A stretch of DNA of 64,000 nt from the NCBI GenBank assembly GCA_964646575.1, contig CAZYFT010000001.1, positions 8,118-72,117 on the forward strand, given 5' to 3'. Below are positions 972 to 57,383 of the stretch, piece by piece; position 1 is the first letter of the stretch, and each line of letters starts with the position of its first letter. A program made the translations under genes and the position numbers. The notes beneath the pieces are model-generated. The model was not told where the DNA came from. It searched no databases and saw nothing but the letters and a program-made list of their open reading frames with translations. The stretch comes from an uncultured Candidatus Saccharibacteria bacterium. GTDB taxonomy: Bacteria > Patescibacteriota > Saccharimonadia > CAILAD01 > GCA-016700035.

Positions 972-2854
972 GCCGTATGGGCATATATTTTGATCGATTA
1001 TTAAGTGCAGGAATTGATCCTCAATCCGTCGAGATGACTGAGCTTCGACGGATTAAGTTTTTCTATGCCTATATCTTTATAGGTATATTTGCCTGTGCCG
1101 GATCGGCATTGGTTTTATTAATGTCTCAGCCGGCAGGCTATAGTTATCTTGCACTCGTTATTACATTGATTATACTTGTCTCGCTCGGGTTGATCTTACG
1201 TTTTCTCAAAAGAACCGACATTGTCGTGCAGTTGTTGTTACTCTTCTTTTGTGGTTTAGCTTGGTTTATATTAACCCAAAGTCAGACTGCTACAGGGATT
1301 TTTTGGCTTTATGTGTATGCCCCAATTGCTGCCTTACTTTTGCCGCGTAAGGTTGCGTTTTTCTGGGTGATATTATTTGCGGCTTGGGTTGTATTGATGG
1401 CGACATTTGCGTGGTTCGGCAAGGTGACTTATTCTGAAATTCAGATCTATGCTTTTCTTGCTTCCTTTTTGCCGATCTCGTTATTCATGATTACATATCA
1501 GCAGATTACAGAGAAAGCAGAACGTGAAGTTTATGAGAAAGATATCCAGCTTCAAGAATTAACTAATAAGCTTGAAGCTGAGTTGCAGTTCGCCTCTCGT
1601 TCTAAGCAGCAGCTAGATGGGTTGAGTGTGGCTCTATCTAAGCAAAACAAAAAGCTTACTAATAGTAAAACTGCACTTCTTAACCTTTTAGAGGATGCAC
1701 GCAAGCTCGAGGGTGAGTTGAAGCGGTCTAAAGCTAATGTTGAGCGCCAAGTGGAGGATCGCACTAAAGAGCTATCAGTAGAAAGGGCTCGTCTTGCATC
1801 AACACTCGAAAGTCTGCCGATTGCCGTGGTGCTTATTGATAGGCATGGTGAAGTTGCTGAGGCTAACGGTAGGGCATATGAGTTAATTGATATTGCTCAG
1901 ACACGTCATGGTACGACGACTGCACGTAAAAAAGTCCAGGCTTTTTTAGATAAAAAATTGAATTTGATGAAATTTATACAGCAATGTTCTCGCTCTGCTT
2001 CCTGTGTGATGATTCCAGAGATTACCTATCAGGGCAATTTTTATAAGATTGCACTCGGTCCTGTCGAGTCACAGGATAGCGATACGCGGGGTGGTGTAGT
2101 AATCGTGATTGAGGACATTACTTCACAAAAACTTCTTGAGCGCTCAAAAGATGAATTTCTGATGATCGCGTCACACGAGTTGCGAACTCCACTGACTGCA
2201 ATTCGCGGTGATGCAGCTGTTTTGGCAAAATACCTAGATGGCGAAATGCATAAAAAAGATGCTCAAGAGCTTATCCAGGACATAAGAGGATCGAGCGATA
2301 GATTACTCGGTGTAGTGAATGATTATTTGGAGCTTTCAAGCTTAGAGCAGGGTAAGATCCCATTTGATATTCAGCGTTTAGACGTTGTGCCACTTTGTAA
2401 GCAAATAGTAGCCGAGAACCGGCCATTGGCACGTGAAAAAAAATTGAAACTAGAGTTTAGGAAACCTCGTAACGCAAGTATGTACGTTGGGGCTGACCCT
2501 AAGCGTGTTGCTCAGATTGTCCAAAACTTACTTTCAAACGCCATTCATTATACCCAGCGTGGCACTGTGACGTTGGAGTTGTCGTCGAGTAACGAAAAAG
2601 TAATCTGTAGAGTTAGAGATACTGGAGTAGGGATTTCAAAACTTAGTCAGAAAAATCTTTTCGATAAGTTTAACCAGGCTCAAGAGAACCTTCTTACTCG
2701 TGACCCTGAACGTAGTACAGGCCTGGGGCTCTATATTGCTAAGTTGTTGGTCGAAAAAATGCAGGGTAGTCTTGTGCTGGAATCTTCGGTACTAAAGAAA
2801 GGTTCAGTCTTTACTTTTAGTTTGCCAGTTTATCAGAAATCTAAGGAACAGTAG
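968..2854 (+). CDS. Sensor histidine kinase. Multi-TM N-terminal sensor region, coiled-coil, PAS-like segment, HisKA and HATPase_c.
   Basis: H-box ASHELRTPLTAIRGDAAVL. G-boxes DTGVGI and GLGLYIAKLLVEKMQGSL. About 6 predicted TM helices at the N-terminus. A PAS-like segment is LESLPIAVVLIDRHGEVAEANGRAYELI. Confidence 0.85.
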   Translation: MSRMGIYFDRLLSAGIDPQSVEMTELRRIKFFYAYIFIGIFACAGSALVLLMSQPAGYSYLALVITLIILVSLGLILRFLKRTDIVVQLLLLFFCGLAWFILTQSQTATGIFWLYVYAPIAALLLPRKVAFFWVILFAAWVVLMATFAWFGKVTYSEIQIYAFLASFLPISLFMITYQQITEKAEREVYEKDIQLQELTNKLEAELQFASRSKQQLDGLSVALSKQNKKLTNSKTALLNLLEDARKLEGELKRSKANVERQVEDRTKELSVERARLASTLESLPIAVVLIDRHGEVAEANGRAYELIDIAQTRHGTTTARKKVQAFLDKKLNLMKFIQQCSRSASCVMIPEITYQGNFYKIALGPVESQDSDTRGGVVIVIEDITSQKLLERSKDEFLMIASHELRTPLTAIRGDAAVLAKYLDGEMHKKDAQELIQDIRGSSDRLLGVVNDYLELSSLEQGKIPFDIQRLDVVPLCKQIVAENRPLAREKKLKLEFRKPRNASMYVGADPKRVAQIVQNLLSNAIHYTQRGTVTLELSSSNEKVICRVRDTGVGISKLSQKNLFDKFNQAQENLLTRDPERSTGLGLYIAKLLVEKMQGSLVLESSVLKKGSVFTFSLPVYQKSKEQ

Positions 2855-2901
2855 CCGACAGAATATGCAAAAACCTATACAATACATGAGAAGGAGTTAT
2901 T

Positions 2902-3273
2902 ATGGCTAAGAAGAAAATTCACTTAATCGAAGATGATCCGTTACTGTCGCGTATGTATGAACGATTGTTTGCTATCCACGGTTATGATTTTCTAGTTGAT
3001 CTAGATTCTCAAGTGGGTTTGGAGCGGGTTAAAACTGAAAAGCCAGATTTAGTTTTATTAGATATTATGATGCCCAATCTCAATGGGCTTGAAGTATTGA
3101 AGCTCTTAAAGTCCGATGATGCTACGAAGGCTATTCCGGTTGTATTAATCACTAATGTAGAGGATGAAGACACGCAGAAGCAGGCAAAGGAGTTGGGTGC
3201 GGATGGTTATTTGATAAAAAGTCGGTTTGATCCAGATGAGACTGTGGAATATGTAGCGAAAAAACTTAAATAA
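2902..3273 (+). CDS. Single-domain response regulator (CheY-like receiver).
   Basis: KIHLIEDDPLLSRMYERLF...DLVLLDIMMPNLNGLEVLKLLK matches the REC domain acidic pocket and phospho-acceptor Asp (LLDIMMP). Also has K at a 'GADGYLIKS'-like position. 123 aa, no output domain. Confidence 0.85.
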   Translation: MAKKKIHLIEDDPLLSRMYERLFAIHGYDFLVDLDSQVGLERVKTEKPDLVLLDIMMPNLNGLEVLKLLKSDDATKAIPVVLITNVEDEDTQKQAKELGADGYLIKSRFDPDETVEYVAKKLK

Positions 3274-3280
3274 TGCGTAT

Positions 3281-4516
3281 TTATAAATAGGTATTAATAT
3301 AGGCTTGGTATGTTTCCTTAAGGTCTTTAGAGGCACCAAAGGGAACACGTTTAATTATCTGGGACTCCATATTCATCATGAGTGCCGGGGTAAGTGTGAA
3401 CTCACCATATGTATTGTTAATAGCATCGGTTGCTTGAGCGACCTGTCGCTGACGAGTGGTTACGGTATCAAAAAGCTCTAGTTGTTCAGGCATGGTGGGT
3501 TCGAGTGCGAAAACAGAGATACCGAGTTTAGCAATTGGTCGTTTACTAGGGCGTTGAGCGAATAATTGCATAATCGTTGTAAAAATATCATTAGTTGAGT
3601 AAATTGTTCGATGGGTTTTAGTCGATTTATGCCAGTAGCTATGGTTGTTGTAGAGAAGCCAAAGGTGAGCACCACGAGCAATCGAATTATGGCGACGCAG
3701 ACGACGGCCAGTCTTTTCAGAAAGTTTCATGAGGTAGCGGGCTAGCTCTTGAGGGTTTTCGGTGGCAATATGAATTGCAAAGTCATTACCGAAGCTCTTA
3801 CGTCCGTAATTTATACTGTCGACCTCCCAGCCTCGCAGTCGATGATACCAGCGATAACCCTCGATGCTACGAAACACTTTGCGATGGAGTGTTTCTGCAG
3901 AGGCGCTAAGGAAATCGAGGGGAGTAAATATACTATATGCATTTAAGCGTGCTTCATAGCGGTAGTTGATACCGCAAAGATCGCGCAACGAGAGTTTCCT
4001 GAGGGTGGTTTCGAGATTTTGCGCATTGATGATGTCTAGGCCATCCGGCTTATGAAGGCCGGCAGCTGTTTTTGCGAGGAACCGGTTGGTTCCGATTCCA
4101 ATATTGACTCGCATATAATTGCCAAGCTCTTTGCGGATGGCCTGTTTGATCTTTCTAGCCACAACCGACAGCGGCGACTTGTGTATCTGTCGGCTCTTAG
4201 AGAAATCGATAACGAACTCATCGATTGAAAGTGGCGTGAGATCGCTTGTGTAGCGATAAAGGAGAGCGTAGAGGCGAGCATTTACATAGAAGTATTTATC
4301 CGGATCGGGCATAAGGAAAATCATATCGGGACAAATAGTTCGGGCTGTACGGACAGGGGTTCCTACGCCGATACCAAGTGCTTTGGCTTCATACGATGCG
4401 GCAAGAACGATACCTCCCGGTGTAGTGTAAGAACACACACCCACGGGTTTGTCTCGTAGCAGGGGGTTGGCTTGCTGCTCAATTGTCGCAAAGGCACTAT
4501 TGAGGTCGATATGCAT
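3281..4516 (-). CDS. Y-family (DinB/UmuC/UvrX-type) translesion DNA polymerase. The likely true start is the internal Met (MHIDLNSAF...); the ORF track extends to 4567.
   Basis: N-terminal MHIDLNSAFATIE (conserved D..F) and catalytic SIDEFVIDFS (DE). Length about 410 aa. Little-finger-like C-terminus. Confidence 0.8.
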   Translation of the reverse strand: MHIDLNSAFATIEQQANPLLRDKPVGVCSYTTPGGIVLAASYEAKALGIGVGTPVRTARTICPDMIFLMPDPDKYFYVNARLYALLYRYTSDLTPLSIDEFVIDFSKSRQIHKSPLSVVARKIKQAIRKELGNYMRVNIGIGTNRFLAKTAAGLHKPDGLDIINAQNLETTLRKLSLRDLCGINYRYEARLNAYSIFTPLDFLSASAETLHRKVFRSIEGYRWYHRLRGWEVDSINYGRKSFGNDFAIHIATENPQELARYLMKLSEKTGRRLRRHNSIARGAHLWLLYNNHSYWHKSTKTHRTIYSTNDIFTTIMQLFAQRPSKRPIAKLGISVFALEPTMPEQLELFDTVTTRQRQVAQATDAINNTYGEFTLTPALMMNMESQIIKRVPFGASKDLKETYQAYINTYL

Positions 4517-4869: not shown

Positions 4870-5550
4870 ATGTGCGGACGATTCGCTTTAGCAGATACTA
4901 AGGAATTAAAGAGCCGATTTCATACTCAGAATGCGGCTCCAAGGGACGTGCGCCCAAACTATAATGCTGCTCCAACCCAAAGCTTGCCAGTGATTGTGGA
5001 GGTCGGTGGCCGAGCTGAGATTAAGGTGATGCATTGGGGAATTGTCCCAGCATGGGCAAAGGATAAGCCACGATTTGCTTTTTCTACGTTTAATGCTCGG
5101 GCAGAATCTTTGCTGGAGAAGCCAATGTGGAAGAAAGTATTCCCATCAAGGCGTTGTTTGGTTCCCGCCACTGGTTTTTATGAGTGGCAAAAGAAGGATA
5201 ACGAGACGCGCCCATATTACATTCATGTAGGAGAACGTGAGATTTTTGTAATGGCAGGTCTGTATGATGAATGGGTAGATACAGAAACCGGAGAGGTGTT
5301 TGATTCTTTTACGATTATAACCACGCGACCGAATTCGGTGATGCGTAAGATACATGATCGAATGCCCGTAATCCTTGATGTTGACGAAGAGGCGACGTGG
5401 CTCGATGCAGATGTGAGTAGTCCGGAGGATTTACTCGCCATGTTAGACCCTTATGATGAAAAAGATACCCTAGCTTATCCAGTAGGTCAAAAAGTGGGGA
5501 ATGTTCGTAATAATTCGCCCGATCTCATCCAGCCGCTAGAGACTGCTTGA
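4870..5550 (+). CDS. SOS-response-associated peptidase (SRAP/YedK/HMCES family, abasic-site crosslinking protein).
   Basis: Begins MCGRF (invariant catalytic Cys2 after Met) with the rest of the SRAP/DUF159 fold. The ORF track starts at an upstream GTG (4855); the true start is probably the ATG at 4870. Confidence 0.8.
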   Translation: MCGRFALADTKELKSRFHTQNAAPRDVRPNYNAAPTQSLPVIVEVGGRAEIKVMHWGIVPAWAKDKPRFAFSTFNARAESLLEKPMWKKVFPSRRCLVPATGFYEWQKKDNETRPYYIHVGEREIFVMAGLYDEWVDTETGEVFDSFTIITTRPNSVMRKIHDRMPVILDVDEEATWLDADVSSPEDLLAMLDPYDEKDTLAYPVGQKVGNVRNNSPDLIQPLETA

Positions 5551-13197: not shown

Positions 13198-13215
13198 ATA
13201 TAGATACTGTATACT

Positions 13216-13247
13216 AAAAAACCACCCAAAGTTGCGGGTGGTTTTTT
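13216..13247. terminator. Bidirectional intrinsic terminator between convergent genes.
   Basis: aaaaaaCCACCCaaagttgcGGGTGGtttttt. An A-run and a T-run flank a 6-bp GC-rich stem. Confidence 0.7.
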
Positions 13248-13262
13248 AGTGAAAAAGAGTGG

Positions 13263-13481
13263 CTACGCAGTAGTGAGTTCGTCTTTGCCGAGATCTTTCG
13301 CGTGCTTCTTGAGGGTGCGAATTGTAGAGGCAGCCAACTTAACACGAACCTTCTCACCATTAATGATGAGAGTTTTCTTCTGGAGGTTTGGTTTCCAGAC
13401 CTTTGGGGTGGCGCGCATAGAGTGGCTCACGTTGTGGCCAAATTGCTTACCTTTTCCTGTGATGTCGCATTTGTAAGACAT
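13263..13481 (-). CDS. rpmB: 50S ribosomal protein L28. Start placed at MSYKCDITGKGK; the ORF track extends to 13541.
   Basis: KCDITGKGKQFGHNVSHSMRATPKVWKPNLQKK...VRVKLAASTIRTLKK is the L28 signature. Confidence 0.8.
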   Translation of the reverse strand: MSYKCDITGKGKQFGHNVSHSMRATPKVWKPNLQKKTLIINGEKVRVKLAASTIRTLKKHAKDLGKDELTTA

Positions 13482-13567
13482 AGTAAAAATTCCTAACCCA
13501 AGCATAATAACAGATACAGGCCAGTTTGACAAGTCTGACATAGGTCCAAAGCTGGTATACTAAACCT

Positions 13568-32351: not shown

Positions 32352-32360
32352 GGAGGCACC

Positions 32361-32639
32361 ATGTCCTATGCATATCCAATCCTCGATGGATGTACGCGCC
32401 ATGAGAATGGTGAATTCACCCACAATGCATGCGGTACCAAGATCATGACTGCCACTGTGCGTCATTCAGTACATGATGGTCCATTTCCGCTTTCTGGTAG
32501 CGGAGATGTAGAGCTTGAACTTGTGCCGTATTGTCCTACTTGCGAGGAAAAGCCGAGCGAGCATGGCGCCCCGGTGGGCCGACGACAAGTGGATGTTGAC
32601 GAAGCGGCAATTCTGCGACGGATGCGCGAACAGCGCTAA
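32361..32639 (+). CDS. Small Cys/His-rich (zinc-ribbon-like) protein.
   Basis: DGCTRHENGEFTHNAC ... CPTCEE metal-ligand spacing. 92 aa. Confidence 0.4.
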   Translation: MSYAYPILDGCTRHENGEFTHNACGTKIMTATVRHSVHDGPFPLSGSGDVELELVPYCPTCEEKPSEHGAPVGRRQVDVDEAAILRRMREQR

Positions 32640-32752
32640 TTTCTACAGGCAGCTTTATTGAGCTTGCCTGTTTTTTACTTACTGAATTATGTTATGCGAA
32701 ATCTGCTCATGGTTGACTATGGCCTTTTTGAGAGTAAATACTGGGAGGGTTA

Positions 32753-36244: not shown

Positions 36245-36262
36245 GCCTGCAATGTCGTTAAG

Positions 36263-36300
36263 GTGATCATTACGACCCCACAGACGTAATGATCACCAGC
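36263..36300. promoter_or_regulatory. Perfect 13-bp inverted repeat (GGTGATCATTACG-N10-CGTAATGATCACC) immediately upstream of the S8 protease start. Candidate operator.
   Basis: Read from the sequence. No T-run follows it, so an operator is more likely than a terminator. Confidence 0.3.
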
Positions 36301-36585
36301 TACTTTATATTGCTGTATGAATGAATGATTTTGTACTGAAGACTGGAAGCAAATAGGTCTTACCAGTATTTTTTTATTGTTAAGTTTAGTGTTTTTGTGT
36401 AGCATTTGATGTTTACGTTTAAGCTTGTTGTATGTATTGCTCTCTACTTTATATACATATGACTGCAGAGACAATAGTTTTTATGCTTAAATGAGTTTTT
36501 TTGACGCAAAAAAGTATTCATTTTGTTCTTCTTGGTATGATATAGTGATTGTGAGTTACATAAGCGTTTCATACGCAAAAAAGTC

Positions 36586-43164: not shown

Positions 43165-43475
43165 TTTTTTTGAGACTAGTCGCACAATTAATTTGGGTAC
43201 GACTTTTTTATTTTGAGCCAAGAACTTTGACTGAGCTCTAGTATTAATTATTTTTGTAGCTTTGATTAATGACGTGTTGGTATGCAGTTTGTAAAATATA
43301 TTCTGCGCGTGAATAAGTTAAGAAGAGAATAAAAAGTATGCAATAAAGAAACCAGGTTAGGGTGGTTGTGGGGACCGTCCTAACCTGGAGAAGTGTCTTG
43401 TGTGTTTGTTTTTGAGTAATATATGTGTGCAGCAGCACTACACCGATAATACGGCTTATACATAACCTTTGTCAA

Positions 43476-43506
43476 CAAAAAAGTTGTGGATAACCACAAC
43501 TTTTTT
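43476..43506. terminator. Bidirectional intrinsic terminator downstream of fba (minus strand), also usable from the plus strand.
   Basis: aaaaaaGTTGTGGataaCCACAACtttttt. Confidence 0.6.
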
Positions 43507-43527
43507 GTGTGAATGGGTATTTACAGG

Positions 43528-51269: not shown

Positions 51270-52262
51270 ATGAAAAAACGCGTATTATCAGGAATTAAGC
51301 CAACCGGAGATGTCCATCTTGGAGGATATCTTGGAGCGATGCGTGAGTGGCCTAAATATCAGTCGCCCGACAATGAGGTGTTTTATTTTATCGCCGATTT
51401 GCATGCCCTCAATACTCGCCCTAAACCTAGTGAACTACGAGATAAGACTTATGATTTGGTGGCATGGCTACTGGCCCTCGGTATCGACAGCGAACGCAAT
51501 CCAATCTATTTACAGTCGCAGATCCCGGAGCACAGTGAACTGTGTTGGCTCTTAAATAACTTCGTTACCATGGGTGAGCTTTCGCGTATGACCCAATATA
51601 AGGACAAGGCCAAGAAAGGCGGCTCTGAGGGCCAGCTAGTGGCGTTATTTACGTACCCTGTATTAATGGCTGCTGATATCTTGCTGTATAGTGCTGATGA
51701 GGTGCCAGTAGGTGAGGATCAGACGCAGCATGTAGAGCTCACTCGAGATATTGCACAGCGCTTTAACGGTGTATATGGGGATGATTTCTTGAAGCTGCCA
51801 GCCTTTACAAACCCGGCTCATTCAGCACGAGTGATGATGCTAGATGATCCACTGCGCAAGATGAGTAAAAGTGAAGGAGGGGATGGCTGTGTGTATCTAG
51901 CCGATTCTGATGAGGTTATTATGCGCAAGTTTAGCCGGGCTGTAACTGATTCTGAAGCAACCGTGCGCTTCGATAGGGGGAAACAGCCAGGAGTGAGTAA
52001 TCTTCTCGAGATATTTGCTGCTATAAAGGGTAAGGATACGGAGGAGCTTGAGAGGGAATTTGCAGGAGTAGGTTACGGGGACTTCAAGAAAGCGGTTGCT
52101 CAGGCTGTGCTCACCGAGCTAGGACCAATCAAGGCAGAATATAGCCGCCTGCGCTCAGATGAGGGGTATTTGGATCGCGTTCTTCAGCGTGGTCGAGAGC
52201 GGGTAAGTAGTGAGGCTCGTTCAAGACTCGTTGAGTTGAAGCAAACAATTGGACTATTGTAA
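51270..52262 (+). CDS. trpS: Tryptophanyl-tRNA synthetase (class I).
   Basis: HIGH-type GIKPTGDVHLGGYLG, KMSKS (RKMSKSEG), YPVLMAADIL. Confidence 0.9.
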   Translation: MKKRVLSGIKPTGDVHLGGYLGAMREWPKYQSPDNEVFYFIADLHALNTRPKPSELRDKTYDLVAWLLALGIDSERNPIYLQSQIPEHSELCWLLNNFVTMGELSRMTQYKDKAKKGGSEGQLVALFTYPVLMAADILLYSADEVPVGEDQTQHVELTRDIAQRFNGVYGDDFLKLPAFTNPAHSARVMMLDDPLRKMSKSEGGDGCVYLADSDEVIMRKFSRAVTDSEATVRFDRGKQPGVSNLLEIFAAIKGKDTEELEREFAGVGYGDFKKAVAQAVLTELGPIKAEYSRLRSDEGYLDRVLQRGRERVSSEARSRLVELKQTIGLL

Positions 52263-52314
52263 AAAATACACCAGCTTTTTACAGAGTAAACAGTCGAAAA
52301 ATACCCAAAACTTA

Positions 52315-52343
52315 TTGACAAAGCATAAGGACTTTGCTAAACT
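52315..52343 (+). promoter_or_regulatory. Near-consensus sigma70 promoter (TTGACA-N17-TAAACT) inside an ORF-free region.
   Basis: ttgaca aagcataaggactttgc taaact, read directly from the sequence. Confidence 0.45.
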
Positions 52344-52413
52344 AGAGTCAATCTAGTTCATTCAAAACCAAAAACAAAAACCAAGTTACATTCCTTTTCT
52401 ATAAATAACGCCG

Positions 52414-52454
52414 CAAGTCGCTTGGTCTCAATAAAGAGCGACTTGTATTTTTTA
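52414..52454 (+). terminator. Intrinsic terminator (9-bp stem plus T-run) about 100 nt downstream of the promoter. Together they define a candidate ~100-nt small RNA.
   Basis: CAAGTCGCTtggtctcaataaagAGCGACTTGtattttttat. Confidence 0.5.
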
Positions 52455-52875
52455 TAGCTGAACAGTAGGGTAACTCCGACCTGTAGACACCCCCCTTGTC
52501 TCGGGTCGGGCTTCCCCTACTGTTCTAGGGTGCCTCATCGAGAGAGGCGACCATTCCCGACAGATAAATCCTTGTTTAAAGCACGAGAAGACGAGCATCC
52601 CGCACGCCTCTTTATACGCTTTAAGTCTGATCAGTCAGTCCAAACAACCGAAACTGATCAACGAAGATTTGCCTAGACGAATGGTAGGGAAACCGGAGCA
52701 GACGAAAAAAAAACAACTAAACGCACCTTTCGTCTCGAACAAAGTCTGCACCAAAACTTGGATACCTAGGCTTCATCAAGCTTAGATACCCCTCACCGGG
52801 GCAGCACGTGCCAATTGAATCTTTCTCTTTAGGGCAGATGTGACTGCCCCGTAACCACTTACTTACTCATCAGAA

Positions 52876-52904
52876 ATCACCCGTTTGTCAGGGTGATTTT
52901 TTTG
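52876..52904 (+). terminator. Intrinsic terminator.
   Basis: ATCACCCgtttgtcaGGGTGATttttttt. Confidence 0.55.
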
Positions 52905-53101
52905 TTAGCGAATTGCAGTCCTGTGAGAGCACGTGCATTGTACGCTCTGGCCTCAAACTTATACGGTGCAGGGTCTGCATTGCCATAATGGCAAAAAGGG
53001 AAGAGCGGAATTATTGGGCAATTAGTTTACTCATAAGTATGAATAAAAATAGTAGTCAAAACAAAAATCGAAAATAGAAAAATATATTTAGTGTTCATAT
53101 T

Positions 53102-53563
53102 TTGGCAAAAAGTATTCAAATGTGGATACTGTGGAAAAAGCATTGGAAAATAGAGATAATAGAGTCTATGCGAGACGCATCCTACAAACAGCTAGGGCTC
53201 TACATATCTGTCACAATTTTTTCGCTCATTCTGTCTTTGAGTGTAGTGGCATTTCTCTTGCTAGCAACTTCACCGAGAGACATAGGTGCTTTAGGCGTAA
53301 CAGTTTGGTTTATAGGCCTATTTGTACTGGCTACATCTTCTATTTTGTTGGTGCGTTATAATTTTGGAAGACATCGACATCCTGAGCCCCAGGAGCGTTT
53401 TGCGGTGTATAAACGCTCGCTCAGAGGGAGTGCCGTGATGGGGCTTTTTTTTGCAATTGCTCTTGCGATGCAAAGTTTGAGGATGCTGAATCTGGGGGAT
53501 ATACTGCTCTTCCTGCTAACTCTTGCTATAATTGAACTATATTTCCGCACGAAAAAATCATGA
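53102..53563 (+). CDS. Small membrane protein (3-4 TM), hypothetical. Its stop overlaps the pheS start.
   Basis: Hydrophobic helices SVTIFSLILSLSVVAFLLL, VWFIGLFVLATSSILLV and GLFFAIALAM. No motif. Confidence 0.4.
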   Translation: MAKSIQMWILWKKHWKIEIIESMRDASYKQLGLYISVTIFSLILSLSVVAFLLLATSPRDIGALGVTVWFIGLFVLATSSILLVRYNFGRHRHPEPQERFAVYKRSLRGSAVMGLFFAIALAMQSLRMLNLGDILLFLLTLAIIELYFRTKKS

Positions 53564-54561
53564 ATGACACTCAAACAGAACTGCGTCAGGTTCAATCTGA
53601 CTTTACTGCTCGTTTAGCTGAGGTGAAGACCCAGCCAGATTTGCTTACTTTAAAATCGGACTTTCTCGGTAAAAAGGGGAGGCTGCAGGCCATTTTGAAG
53701 TCTCTGAGCGCGCTTTCAGTAGATGAGCGGCGGGATATTGGCGCTCGGGCCAATGCATTAAAGAAGGAAATAGAGGGGCAGCTAGCGCGGCAAGAGTTTG
53801 TTATTGCAGAGAGCGCTGACGCGTCACTCTCTTCAGTTGATCTATCTTTACCTATACGTAGCGAGCAGCGGGTGGGGCATGGACACCCTACACAGCTTGT
53901 TTTAGACGATATTTATGAAGTGTTCTTGCGCTTGGGCTTCGCGGTTGTTGATGGGCCTGAGGTAGAGACTGATTGGTATAACTTTGAGGTCCTTAATATG
54001 CCGGCAGATCACCCAGCCCGGGATATGCAGGATACGTTTTATTTGGAGGCTGAAGAAGGCGCGGTGCCTTTGGTGCCGAGAACACACACCTCGGCTTCGC
54101 AAATTCGCTATCTGGAGACTCATAAGCCACCGTTTAAGATTATCGTGCCCGGGAAAGTCTATCGCAATGAAGATGAGGATAGAACTCACTCCTGGACATT
54201 TTATCAGGTGGAGGGCTTGGTGGTTGGCGAGGGTGTGAGCATGGCGGATCTAAAGGGCACATTGTTACACTGCGTACAATCTTTGCTTGGTTCAGATGTG
54301 AAGATTCGCTTTAGGCCAAGCTTTTTCCCATATACCGAGCCGTCTGTTGAGGTTGACGTGTGGTATCAAAATGAGTGGCTTGAGGTTGGCGGTGCTGGTA
54401 TGGTGCACCCACATGTTTTGGCGCGTGGTGGAGTGGATCCGGAGCACTTTTATGGGTTTGCTTTTGGGTTTGGTCCAGATCGGTTGGCGCTTATTCGCTA
54501 TGGCTTAACGGATTTGCGCAAGCTATGGCGCCCCAATCTTCTGATGAGTGAGGATTTATGA
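53560..54561 (+). CDS. pheS: Phenylalanyl-tRNA synthetase alpha subunit.
   Basis: Class II motifs FRPSFFPYTEPSVEVDV and GAGMVHPHVL. Confidence 0.9.
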   Translation: MNDTQTELRQVQSDFTARLAEVKTQPDLLTLKSDFLGKKGRLQAILKSLSALSVDERRDIGARANALKKEIEGQLARQEFVIAESADASLSSVDLSLPIRSEQRVGHGHPTQLVLDDIYEVFLRLGFAVVDGPEVETDWYNFEVLNMPADHPARDMQDTFYLEAEEGAVPLVPRTHTSASQIRYLETHKPPFKIIVPGKVYRNEDEDRTHSWTFYQVEGLVVGEGVSMADLKGTLLHCVQSLLGSDVKIRFRPSFFPYTEPSVEVDVWYQNEWLEVGGAGMVHPHVLARGGVDPEHFYGFAFGFGPDRLALIRYGLTDLRKLWRPNLLMSEDL

Positions 54562-57383
54562 AAATAGCAATTGCTACACTTAATCGATACTTGAAAAAGC
54601 CACGATCAACCGACGAAATCGTGGAGCTTATGGCGCGCACAGAAATTGAGGTAGAGGAAATTATTCGCTCGGATAGTTTGGATGCAAAGATTATTTTAGT
54701 GAAGACTGTTGAAGTTGAACCGCATCCCAATGCCGATCGACTTCGCCTTGTGACGGTAACAAATGGCACAGATAAGATTAGGGTTGTGTGCGGAGCGCCA
54801 AATGTTACGGTTGGTCAGCGCGTTGGTTTGGTGCAGCCGGGTGCAAAATTGCCAGACGGAACAAAGATTGGTGTATCGAAGATCCGCGGCGAGGTTTCGC
54901 ATGGCATGCTCGCAAGTGCTCAGGAGCTTGGCTTGAGCGATGATCATTCTGGCATCTTTGTTTTTGAAGAAGACTCACATAGGCTCGGTACATCATTGTG
55001 CGACATTGTGTTTTTCGGGGATGTGCTAGACATAAAGACACCTGCAAATAGATGGGATTACCTAAGTGGGGTAGGGCTAGCGCGCGAATTGGCCGCCCAT
55101 GATGAAGGGCAGGGGGTAGTGGAGCCCGCAGTTGGCGAGTATTCATATAAAAACACCGACTACGTAAATGTCAAGGCGAGGGAAGAGAATAGACGGTTTG
55201 TTTCGGCGAAACTCAGAGTTAAGAATGATGTAAAAAGTCCTGCATGGCTTGTGGATAACTTGGCGGCGAATGGAATCGCCACTCATAATCCAGTTGTTGA
55301 TATTACAAACTTTGTGATGCTTGAACTTGGTCAGCCGAGTCACGCCTATGATGCTACAGCATTGACTGGCCCACTCGAGGTTCGCTATGCCGAGAAAGGT
55401 GAAAAAATTACCACACTCGATGATGAGACGCGTGAATTAACCGAGCAGGATCTTGTTGTATGCGATGCAACTGGTCCGGTTGGCTTGGCTGGCGTAATGG
55501 GCGGAGCTTCTAGCCAAATTGGGATAGAAACTACCGAAATTGTACTTGAGGCTGCACACTGGGATAAGTCGTGCATCCGCAAGACTGCTGTGCGACACGG
55601 TTTGCGCACGGAAGCTTCGTCTCGGTTTGAGCGCCCTATCCCACTCCCCTTGCCACAAAAAGCTTTTTCAAGACTCTTAGATTTGCTCACAGAAATTTGT
55701 GAAGCTGAAATTATTGAAGGACCGTATGATCAGCTGCATGGCTGGCCGTGGCAACAATTTTTGGGCGTTCGAGTTCGTCAAGCCGAACGGTTTTTGGGGA
55801 TTACTCTGGATGAGAAGCAGGTTGTTAAGGACCTAAAGAAGCTAGGATTTTCGGTTGAGCACTTCTCTATCACTAAAGAGCTGAGAAGCCATGTCGGAAA
55901 ACCATATCGTTGGGGTGCGAATTTTCGTCAAGATGGCGAGGAGGCCTTTGATTGCTCATATCTGGTGGATCGCATCTATTCTAAGCTTGGTATTTTTGTT
56001 GGTCATACGGCCTTGGGGCAAATTCATACAGGTCGACCAGTTGAAGCAAACGAGCTCAAGCCTGGAGATGTGTTGTTTTATGAGGGGAAAATTGAGAAAT
56101 CTGTAACTGATCATTATTATTTAATGAATCCTGATGGCACTAAGACCAGATACGATCTGGAGAAGCCAGAAAAAGTTGGACATAACGGCATTTATCTAGG
56201 CGGTGGCCAAGTGGTTCAGGCAGCGCAGTATAAATACCAGCAGGGCGAATGGGTGCGTCGCGATGAGGGCGGTGTGATCATCTCCCCCGTTGAGGAATTT
56301 ATCGAGAACCCCGGCTATCTGGGTGCGCGGCGTTATGTTGAAAGTTTCAATCATATTCTGGCGGTAGAAGTCCCCTGGTGGCGCAGTGACATTCGCTTAG
56401 AGGCGGATATGTTTGAGGAGATTGCCAAGTTGGTTGGATACGACAAGATGTCCGAGACATTGCCTGATATCGCGCCGATGCCGGATTCTAGCCAGTCGCC
56501 ACTAGTTGCAATGCGTGAATTGCGCCGGCGGTTGAGACATATTGGAGGCACCGATGTCGCAACATACAGCTTCATATCAGAGACCGACGCCAAAGCCTCT
56601 AAGTTAGCCATCGATAGTTTGCCTACGGTAGCTAATCCACGCTCCCCTGAACAGAAATATTTGCGGTCTGATCTACTGGCAAGTCATCTGACGATGTGGC
56701 AAAAGAATAGCGTATCTAAGACTGGTCAGGTGGCCTTTGAGCTTTCTAGGGTTTTTGATGGCTCGGGCAGAGACGGCAAGCTACCTAAAGAAAAATGGGT
56801 GTTGGCAATAAGTACTCATGGATCGGACTCTTTGAGTCAATTGCAGGCGTACGTACACCATTTCCTGGCTGGCCTACATGTACAGGCAAAGTTTCAAGTT
56901 GATGAGCGTGCTGATGACAGGTTGGTGCCTCAGCGATCGGCACAGCTGATGGTCGGTGGTGCTAAGCTTGGTGTAATTGGTCAAGTAAGTACTCCTATCT
57001 GGAAGCAGTTCGGCCTCACTCAACCTGCTAGTTATTCACTTCTTGATATTAAGGTGCTTTTGGAGGTCATCGCTACACCACGAGTAAAAACACTCCCAGA
57101 TTATCAGTTGGTACAGCGAGATATGAGCCTAGAAATGAGCGAGGTAACGAGCTGGCAGTCAATTACAGAAGTTGCACTTGAGCAGGCTGGACTCGTAAGC
57201 TGGGAATATCTATCCAGTTACCGCGATGCTGAACTTGAGCAGGCTGGACGAAAGGTAATCACGATAAAGGTAAGATTTGATCTTGGCCCGCGCCCAGAGG
57301 CAAGTGAGATTACGCGTATAGAAACAGACTTGGTGGCTGCATTGCAGTCTGTCTGTCCGTCGGCCGAGTTAGTGGTTCGGTAA
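54558..57383 (+). CDS. pheT: Phenylalanyl-tRNA synthetase beta subunit. Carries a ~160-aa NlpC/P60-type cysteine peptidase domain inserted within the B5 domain (residues ~441-598).
   Basis: PheT modules are all present: tRNA-binding domain (EPHPNADRLRLVTV), B3/4 (ATHNPVVDITNFVMLELGQPSHAYDA), B5 (VPWWRSDIRLEADMFEEIAKLVGYDKM), and FDX-ACB C-terminus. The protein is 941 aa versus ~800 aa typical. The insert carries DCSYLVDRIY...GDVLFYEG...GHNGIYLGGGQVVQA (NlpC/P60 Cys-His-His). Confidence 0.9.
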   Translation: MKIAIATLNRYLKKPRSTDEIVELMARTEIEVEEIIRSDSLDAKIILVKTVEVEPHPNADRLRLVTVTNGTDKIRVVCGAPNVTVGQRVGLVQPGAKLPDGTKIGVSKIRGEVSHGMLASAQELGLSDDHSGIFVFEEDSHRLGTSLCDIVFFGDVLDIKTPANRWDYLSGVGLARELAAHDEGQGVVEPAVGEYSYKNTDYVNVKAREENRRFVSAKLRVKNDVKSPAWLVDNLAANGIATHNPVVDITNFVMLELGQPSHAYDATALTGPLEVRYAEKGEKITTLDDETRELTEQDLVVCDATGPVGLAGVMGGASSQIGIETTEIVLEAAHWDKSCIRKTAVRHGLRTEASSRFERPIPLPLPQKAFSRLLDLLTEICEAEIIEGPYDQLHGWPWQQFLGVRVRQAERFLGITLDEKQVVKDLKKLGFSVEHFSITKELRSHVGKPYRWGANFRQDGEEAFDCSYLVDRIYSKLGIFVGHTALGQIHTGRPVEANELKPGDVLFYEGKIEKSVTDHYYLMNPDGTKTRYDLEKPEKVGHNGIYLGGGQVVQAAQYKYQQGEWVRRDEGGVIISPVEEFIENPGYLGARRYVESFNHILAVEVPWWRSDIRLEADMFEEIAKLVGYDKMSETLPDIAPMPDSSQSPLVAMRELRRRLRHIGGTDVATYSFISETDAKASKLAIDSLPTVANPRSPEQKYLRSDLLASHLTMWQKNSVSKTGQVAFELSRVFDGSGRDGKLPKEKWVLAISTHGSDSLSQLQAYVHHFLAGLHVQAKFQVDERADDRLVPQRSAQLMVGGAKLGVIGQVSTPIWKQFGLTQPASYSLLDIKVLLEVIATPRVKTLPDYQLVQRDMSLEMSEVTSWQSITEVALEQAGLVSWEYLSSYRDAELEQAGRKVITIKVRFDLGPRPEASEITRIETDLVAALQSVCPSAELVVR

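Follow-up and report, generated by a model that had tools for sequence, protein, structure and literature searches.

Introduction

To our knowledge, few bacterial RNAs are large, intricately folded and supported by strong covariation. The known examples comprise the ribosomal RNAs, RNase P RNA, tmRNA, the group I and group II introns, OLE, GOLLD, ROOL, HEARO and raiA, each of which shows unusual chemistry or assembly or is still an open puzzle; ROOL and GOLLD are large ornate RNAs that form RNA-only multimers. The RsaE/RoxS-type small RNAs (sRNAs) of Gram-positive bacteria are regulators with C-rich loops. Helices that are free in sequence, combined with invariant loops and junctions, are the pattern of RNAs that have a tertiary fold and bound partners. 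Saccharibacteria are ultrasmall epibionts with genomes of ~1 Mb from which many pathways have been lost. OapA, the membrane partner of OLE, has four transmembrane helices and a basic cytoplasmic loop and is related to the CNNM/DUF21 transmembrane domain (PMC12265935). Here we analyze the 839-nucleotide (nt) stretch 52263-53101 of a 64-kb segment of DNA from an uncultured Saccharibacteria genome (the whole segment is called the window), which follows the tryptophanyl-tRNA synthetase gene trpS and likely harbors a single plus-strand non-coding RNA (ncRNA) gene of ~555 nt (52350-52904), the member of an uncatalogued family conserved across the class Saccharimonadia. As no catalogued RNA family matches it, we present it as a candidate for a new class of large, structured RNA in bacteria; novelty is claimed for the RNA family and no new mechanism is claimed.

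Results

A likely RNA gene between trpS and the pheS operon

Neither strand of the stretch contains an open reading frame (ORF) of at least 60 aa. At 839 nt it is the longest ORF-free segment in the window, the runner-up having 432 nt and the gaps around the tmRNA and RNase P RNA genes ranking lower, which bears out the ORF-free gap reported by an initial annotation of the same DNA. The stretch is flanked by trpS (51270-52262; PF00579, 4.6e-71), the closest relatives of whose product all come from 'Candidatus Saccharibacteria', Saccharimonadales or Patescibacteria metagenome-assembled genomes, and by a 153-codon ORF (53102-53563). That annotation had named trpS and pheS as the flanking genes; it was right about trpS, but the next gene is an ORF for a protein with four transmembrane helices (4-TM protein) that overlaps pheS (53560-54561) by 4 nt, and pheS overlaps pheT (54558-57383) by the same length. 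Folding of the plus strand is better than that of shuffled sequences (z = -6.3; 0 of 100 shuffles as good), and the GC skew is negative in the stretch while it is positive in the surrounding plus-strand genes. Scanning the window with Rfam 15 (4227 families; scans were made at gathering scores and at permissive E-values) detected RNase P RNA, tmRNA and two tRNAs elsewhere and no match in the stretch.

The predicted transcription unit has the following parts:

52315..52343, plus strand: sigma-70 promoter; -35 TTGACA (52315-52320), 17-nt spacer with TG extension, -10 TAAACT (52338-52343), 10 of 12 matches
52350..52904, plus strand: entire RNA gene, ~555 nt; leader, P0, P1, P2/P2a, Pc, P3, hub, P5, P6, P7, tail and terminator
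52873..52904, plus strand: intrinsic terminator; 10-bp stem, 8-nt loop and U7, with covarying pairs

The near-consensus promoter TTGACA-N17-TAAACT, present as the initial annotation described it, is unique within the window, and its position predicts a transcription start site near 52350. We compared the window with loci of its relatives and with metagenome loci (designated L001 and so on), among which four clades (A-D) can be told apart and the window copy belongs to clade A. All full-length homologues in clades A-D retain both hexamers at a spacing of 17 nt, with the motif AAGCATAAG...TTTG in the spacer. Conservation does not extend upstream of the -35 box. The distant lineages L006, L007, L008 and L011 retain a promoter of the same type. 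When the six closest sequences are aligned, conservation sets in sharply at the -35 box, continues unbroken through both 'halves' of the RNA and ends a few bases past the U-run of the second hairpin; in more distant homologues the conserved block is likewise bounded by the promoter and the terminator. Nearly every homologue has at its 3' end a hairpin, which differs in sequence, and then a U-run, which is interrupted in L097 and L095. A simple terminator scan flagged neither the hairpin at 52413-52446 nor the one at 52873-52904, so that the assignment of the second hairpin with its U7 as the terminator, in agreement with the initial annotation, is based on reading, folding and conservation in homologues. 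The features of an independent bacterial ncRNA gene are found here, namely a promoter and a terminator of its own, a position conserved across relatives and a conserved structure with compensatory changes.

The hairpin at 52413-52446 was at first read as a terminator as well, defining a candidate sRNA of ~100 nt. The hairpin and the U6 that follows it are indeed present, but they form an element, P0, inside the longer RNA. Two RNAs, an sRNA of ~100 nt (52350-52454) followed by a second structured RNA of ~450 nt, are quite improbable. The U6 run occurs in the window and its closest relatives, in which some premature termination to a short form is plausible, yet it is confined to clade A and interrupted in L003, while the P0 of clades B-D is a plain hairpin that lacks it. 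A promoter scan detected nothing promoter-like in the interval 52343-52460, the U-run is just 6 nt away from P1, and the conserved block continues unbroken over this junction, so the downstream 450 nt must come from read-through of P0. The ~100-nt species would be at most a by-product in the window lineage. Where 'one or more novel ncRNAs' had been envisaged, the case for a novel ncRNA is strong, and it is for a single RNA of ~555 nt, not several.

Selection on the RNA

Nucleotide identity to the window copy was determined for the RNA and its surroundings:

RNA: L002 98.7%, L004 94.9%, L003 89.1%
trpS: L002 84%, L004 73%, L003 76%
pheS: L002 83%, L003 72.5%
Spacer after the terminator: L002 58%, L004 56%, L003 52%

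In conservation the RNA exceeds both trpS and pheS on its flanks, and purifying selection on it is stronger than on its protein-coding neighbors. Mismatches between the window and L003, sorted by position modulo 3, number 16/22/22 in the RNA versus 47/26/165 in trpS, and indels in the RNA are mostly of 1-2 nt.

A decayed protein gene, which the initial annotation had kept in play, or the remnant of a mobile element or intron could account for a long ORF-free stretch in a compact genome, and a stop-free frame of ~104 codons lacking an early start codon (52474-52785) does cross the RNA. We take this frame as chance because the substitution pattern is non-coding. Against decay stand the conservation in excess of that of the neighboring genes, the lack of codon periodicity (mismatches are spread evenly over the three positions), the frame-breaking indels and the small ORFs of the stretch, none of which matches a Pfam family. 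Against a mobile element or intron stand the single copy per locus at a fixed site, the absence of intron or repeat families from the Rfam scans and the chance nature of the viral-contig matches described below. We consider either origin extremely unlikely.

Homologues and genomic position

Searches with the stretch against the trpS loci of relatives (BLASTN and nhmmer) recovered the entire region in L001-L005 and more diverged copies in L012, L019 and L042, always directly 3' of trpS. A 20-base pattern from the 3' hairpin, AGGGCAGAT-N5-14-CCCGTAACCA, was used to search metagenomes and matched 39 stretches, 18 of them full or partial homologues. The remaining 21, together with both matches in viral contigs, lie in unrelated and mostly coding-like DNA and are due to chance, and a phage origin suggested by the two viral contigs was discarded with them. 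In total, 26 homologues were identified in Saccharimonadia genomes and metagenomes. After removal of duplicates, 22 full-length and two partial RNAs were retained, which are 45-98% identical and form the four clades. Full-length homologues derive from nine clade A-D genome loci, with four further genome loci carrying more distant versions and 18 metagenome loci.

The more distant versions (L006, L007, L008 and L011) occupy the same place and share the type of promoter, P1 with its CCCCCUU loop and a related 3' hairpin. In a divergent Saccharibacteria lineage (L013, 7020-7365) the RNA is shortened to ~310 nt. This version is preceded by a promoter of that type, is A-rich at its 5' end, ends in a terminator and keeps a related 3' hairpin (model R2, E = 0.004), and a gene of the 4-TM family lies downstream; the P1 CCCCCUU hairpin was not recognized in it. 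With covariance models of P1 (R1) and P7 (R2), plus-strand scores are 65-86 bits versus 28-41 on the minus strand, and in 1.0 Mb of sequence that included Firmicutes, Streptomyces and other Patescibacteria they match only Saccharimonadia loci, after trpS. The window holds a single copy of the RNA.

The gene order RmuC-trpS-RNA-(4-TM)-pheS-pheT is found in every locus long enough to show it, and the RNA is directly 3' of trpS in every locus that reaches far enough upstream. The only local break in synteny that was seen is an insertion of ~2 kb in L106, which places a 125-aa ORF and a purD-like (phosphoribosylamine-glycine ligase) gene (1653-3331) between the RNA and 4-TM/pheS; the RNA stays by trpS and the 4-TM gene stays fused to pheS. 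The fixed genomic partner of the RNA is the 3' end of trpS.

Structure of the RNA

The elements of the RNA, in 5' to 3' order, are:

52350..52412, plus strand: 5' leader, A/C-rich, predicted to be mostly single-stranded; (U)AGUUCAUUCAAAAC and AAAAACAAAAA are kept in every clade
52413..52453, plus strand: P0 and U6 run; stem 52413-52423 with 52436-52446
52460..52525, plus strand: P1, a long three-part hairpin; basal helix gaacaguaggg/cccuacuguuc
52528..52566, plus strand: junction with tentative P2, hairpin P2a and motif M2
52531-52536 with 52544-52549, plus strand: P2a, covarying between GCCUC/GAGGC and GCCAC/GUGGC
52550..52556 (ACCAUUC) with 52679..52685 (GAAUGGU), plus strand: closing helix Pc, whose 3' strand overlaps the hub motif
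52556-52566, plus strand: conserved junction motif M2, YCC-GNN-RG
52562..52674, plus strand: P3 domain, branched in the window lineage; 52562-75/52661-74, 52576-82/52618-24 and 52628-35/52653-60 in the minimum free energy fold
52683..52691, plus strand: hub motif GGUAGGGAA, near-invariant, with A, U or G as its fourth base
52695..52752, plus strand: P5, a long-range hairpin pairing GGAGCAGAC with GUCUGCACC; interior variable
52766..52785, plus strand: P6, a hairpin pairing CUAGGCUU with AAGCUUAG
52797..52851, plus strand: P7, the 3' hairpin; GA bulge at 52837-52838 conserved, small apical hairpin covarying
52851..52857, plus strand: GUAACCA tail motif, invariant in clades A-D and absent in the L006-L008 and L011 lineages

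Helices were scored by the percentage of alignment cells that are paired and set against comparison pairings, the slid controls. The initial annotation had proposed a check for covariation among homologous regions of related genomes, and the helices do covary. At the 5' end, P0 is kept as a hairpin outside clade A and shows covarying pairs in clades A and B (pairs 72-77/98-103). Two helices listed by the initial annotation are present: the 11-bp helix gaacagtaggg/ccctactgttc with its nested hairpins (52460-52470 with 52515-52525) is the base of P1, and the stem cggggcag/ctgccccg (52797-52851) is P7. In P1 90% of cells are paired across 21 sequences versus 37-47% in the slid controls, with nine pairs changed on both sides, while its apical loop CCCCCUU (52490-52496) is invariant. 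For P7 the corresponding values are 94.9% versus 25-51% across 19 sequences, with six covarying pairs.

The junction that follows P1 contains P2, in which GGG (52528-52530) may pair with CCC (52557-52559); the types GGG/CCC, GGA/UCC and GGU/ACC occur, with exceptions in L103 and L106. Clade D has junction helices at 208-215/287-295. The closing helix Pc is paired in 85.7% of cells versus 29-52% in the slid controls across the eight clade D sequences, with two pairs changed on both sides. Within clade D an A-U is swapped for a G-C at one pair, and across the clades the pair types UUC/GAA, UCC/GGA and UAC/GUA are found. Pc encloses the P3 domain, which in clade D is a single 49-nt hairpin in which 17 of 21 pairs have changes on both sides. 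One homologue (L107, ~4930-5110) carries an insertion of ~100 nt in the P3 domain, so that P3 tolerates expansion.

The sequence GUAGGG from the P1 5' strand recurs in the hub motif GGUAGGGAA, which is complementary to the opposite, 3' strand of that helix. The motif also contributes to Pc, and a neighboring CUACC could be another pairing partner in clade D. A conformational switch is thus possible, since the hub could pair with three different segments.

P5 and P6 share no sequence between clades, and a cross-clade MAFFT alignment of this region folded with RNAalifold gave no consensus. When folded individually, all 22 of 22 RNAs form the same P5 and P6 hairpins from different sequences. In an alignment of 13 sequences fitted with a covariance model, 95.9% of the P5/P6 cells are paired versus 36-50% in the slid controls and 12 pairs are changed on both sides (two to three in the slid controls), including eight of 11 pairs in P5 helices 2-3 and four of six in P6. 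The entire clade D model (eight sequences, 100 pairs) is paired in 96.3% of cells versus 39-47%, with 27 pairs changed on both sides versus three to nine, and among 500 shuffles none attains the value of the real alignment in any of five measures.

Three further pairings were considered and rejected. A pairing between the 5' leader and the terminator (GCCAC with GGUGG), predicted by RNAalifold for clade D, fails in L012, which keeps the leader motif and has a different terminator. A long-range GGG/CCC pairing predicted for clades A and B is not conserved in clade D. Finally, a GGU..GG/CC..GCC helix in model R3 was forced by truncated context, conflicts with P7 and never varies.

Overall the sequences of the helices vary freely, and the invariant nucleotides sit in loops and junctions: the CCCCCUU loop, YCC-GNN-RG, GGUAGGGAA, the GA bulge of P7 and GUAACCA.

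Comparison with described RNA families

In a permissive Rfam scan of 52150-53250 (E <= 10) only noise was obtained (IRE, rliA and mir-460, E ~1-2.5); six other members of the family gave nothing at E <= 1, and 11 entire related loci gave tRNAs only. The scans bear out the statement in the initial annotation that the stretch could not be matched to signal recognition particle (SRP) RNA, 6S RNA or a T-box. A literature search found no such ncRNA described from Saccharibacteria or Patescibacteria.

A cis-acting leader (an attenuator, a riboswitch or a T-box-like element) that controls terminator read-through into the 4-TM/pheS/pheT operon is an alternative suggested by position: in nearly all loci the RNA lies upstream of, and in the same orientation as, this aminoacyl-tRNA synthetase operon, it ends in a terminator, its hub has alternative pairing partners, and it has UGGU and ACCA elements like those of T-boxes. 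However, the T-box model (RF00230) finds no match at gathering score in the window and the 11 loci, at E <= 10 in 52150-53250 or at E <= 1 in the six members, and no riboswitch model matches at any threshold. The T-box sequence AGGGUGGNACCGCG, which forms the antiterminator bulge of these leaders, does not occur with three or fewer mismatches in 52263-53101, its 10 matches elsewhere in the window equaling chance expectation, and by eye we recognize no Stem I/specifier architecture. The terminator of a T-box adjoins the gene that it controls, whereas here a poorly conserved spacer of 200-500 nt with promoter-like sites of its own follows the terminator, and in L106 the two unrelated genes come between. 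The terminator is not conserved in sequence and no conserved anti-terminator element overlaps it. With a strong promoter of its own, 555 nt and at least eight helices, the RNA far exceeds known leaders and is separable from the operon. Conservation that ends at the terminator and the L106 insertion also speak against the riboswitch-like leader offered by the initial annotation, and we judge a leader function improbable.

A very divergent and expanded SRP RNA or 6S RNA that escapes the Rfam models would share with the present RNA its own promoter and terminator and a class-wide conservation, and it would presumably be abundant and stable; the strong promoter and the retention in reduced genomes are those of housekeeping RNAs, and in the window, which covers 64 kb only, RNase P RNA and tmRNA were detected, whereas SRP RNA and 6S RNA were not. 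Yet neither the SRP models (RF00169/RF01854) nor the 6S model (RF00013) match at E <= 10 in the 1.1-kb region or at E <= 1 in the six members. There is no conserved GNRA-capped hairpin like helix 8 of SRP RNA, the sole GNRA-like loop, GGGAAACC (52687-52694), not being conserved in clade D. The consensus is a series of hairpins with a branched domain, not the rod with central bubble of 6S RNA (~180-200 nt), and at 500-620 nt it is two to five times longer than these RNAs. Such an identity is very unlikely.

In size the RNA resembles OLE (~600 nt), which is likewise many-helix, highly conserved and stand-alone, and in most genomes a gene for a small 4-TM protein with a basic loop adjoins the RNA, a description that also fits OapA. 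In contrast to OLE, which is found in Bacillota, the host phylum is Patescibacteria; the OLE model (RF01071) does not match at any threshold, the 4-TM protein has no CNNM/DUF21 match, and in L106 it stays with pheS. We regard the OLE/OapA analogy as a weak lead. ROOL and GOLLD are comparable as large (>500 nt), ornate and covariation-supported bacterial RNAs, and an RNA-only assembly may be formed here too. ROOL and GOLLD are often associated with tRNAs and phage DNA. Their models do not match and no tRNA is adjacent, and the RNA differs from them in being a single-copy gene at a fixed chromosomal site after trpS and not in phage-like DNA. The invariant C-rich CCCCCUU loop recalls the RsaE/RoxS-type sRNAs in that it resembles an anti-Shine-Dalgarno sequence and could pair with G-rich sites; it differs in being a single such loop within a 555-nt multi-domain RNA.

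The downstream spacer and the pheS operon

The region between the RNA and pheS comprises:

52905..53167, plus strand: spacer and control region of the downstream operon, outside the RNA; 52-58% identity apart from short motifs
53168..53563, plus strand: gene of the 4-TM protein; likely start ATG 53168 within an ORF open from 53102, 4-nt overlap with pheS

The downstream operon has promoter-like sites at 53102-53130 and 53132-53160, and the conserved motifs of the spacer are TTTAGTGTTCA, a DnaA-box-like site and GATAATAG before the start codon. Spacers 3' of the RNA in L094, L115, L119, L098, L112 and L103 have short motifs in common across clades, including TTTAGTGTTCA. Clade D spacers contain TGTCA-N8-10-TGACA palindromes and a consensus DnaA box TTATCCACA, and the window spacer a DnaA-box-like TTTTCCACA at 53130-53138 on the minus strand; DnaA boxes are not enriched in the window, where the spacer has one box-like site. 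Directly before the 4-TM start codon (C)AGATAATAG is conserved across clades.

The 4-TM protein is a conserved orphan with four transmembrane helices and a basic loop, encoded downstream of the RNA in every lineage. It belongs to 37 known clusters, all hypothetical, all from Patescibacteria and without a Pfam domain, and no significant match was found in Pfam, NCBIfam, the PDB sequences or the PDB folds (the last with an AlphaFold2 model of mean predicted local distance difference test score 84). The family signature is ..SPRDIGxxGVTxWF ... SLRxLxLxDxxLFxLTxxIIELYFRTRK (L001-L013 and L094-L119), and all Saccharimonadia lineages that were examined show translational coupling of the gene to pheS. 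The 4-TM protein is a neighbor of the RNA, and L106 shows that its tight linkage is to pheS.

Further downstream, pheT (54558-57383, 941 aa) encodes an NlpC/P60-like domain (PF00877, 4e-12) at residues 447-519, between B3_4 and B5, an unusual cell-wall-hydrolase-like insertion in the beta subunit of phenylalanyl-tRNA synthetase. Elsewhere in the window four segments of 340-400 nt each (32352-32752, 13198-13567, 43165-43527 and 36245-36585) have no ORF of at least 100 aa on either strand and no Rfam match at gathering score.

Discussion

The anatomy of this single ncRNA points to a stable RNA that would be made abundantly and act in trans, because it combines a consensus promoter and a terminator of its own, a conservation that ends at that terminator, and variable helices with invariant loops and junctions. 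It is probably a scaffold or the RNA subunit of a ribonucleoprotein, in which the CCCCCUU loop, the GGUAGGGAA hub and the GUAACCA tail are probably presented to one or more partners. A bolder version of this proposal, which we put forward tentatively and think less likely than not to hold in full, is that the family is a class of large 'ornate' RNA, the first specific to Patescibacteria, also known as the candidate phyla radiation, and is the RNA subunit of an essential machine particular to this lineage, be it a ribonucleoprotein, a ribozyme or an assembly of RNA alone, in which the hub GGUAGGGAA switches helices. Retention of the RNA in genomes of ~1 Mb would follow from such an essential role.

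Several points weigh against reading the stretch as one large RNA gene with this structure and role. Firstly, the promoter, start site and terminator are predicted from sequence and conservation, and the terminal hairpin is among those that the terminator scan left unflagged. Secondly, the middle of the RNA cannot be aligned by sequence between clades, so the model there leans on folds of individual sequences and on the structure-leaning alignment fitted with a covariance model, and covariance model R3 did not reach clade A, the window copy included. Two of the contacts are also uncertain. P2, which would form a pseudoknot with Pc, is tentative, with one covarying position and two exceptions, and a helix closing the 5' and 3' parts of the RNA (52381-87 with 52755-61) is weakly supported, having one compensatory change, in L107, and no counterpart in the other clades. 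Thirdly, the scaffold or ribonucleoprotein role is proposed solely from anatomy and from analogy with other large bacterial RNAs. Finally, synteny of the neighborhood extends throughout the class, so that the location of the RNA is a poor guide to its function.

The family is defined well enough for genome-wide searches and is directly testable. A 555-nt non-coding gene with a consensus promoter is kept throughout the class and surpasses its aminoacyl-tRNA synthetase neighbors in conservation; since it is retained and so highly conserved in reduced genomes of ~1 Mb, the RNA likely matters to the biology of Saccharibacteria.

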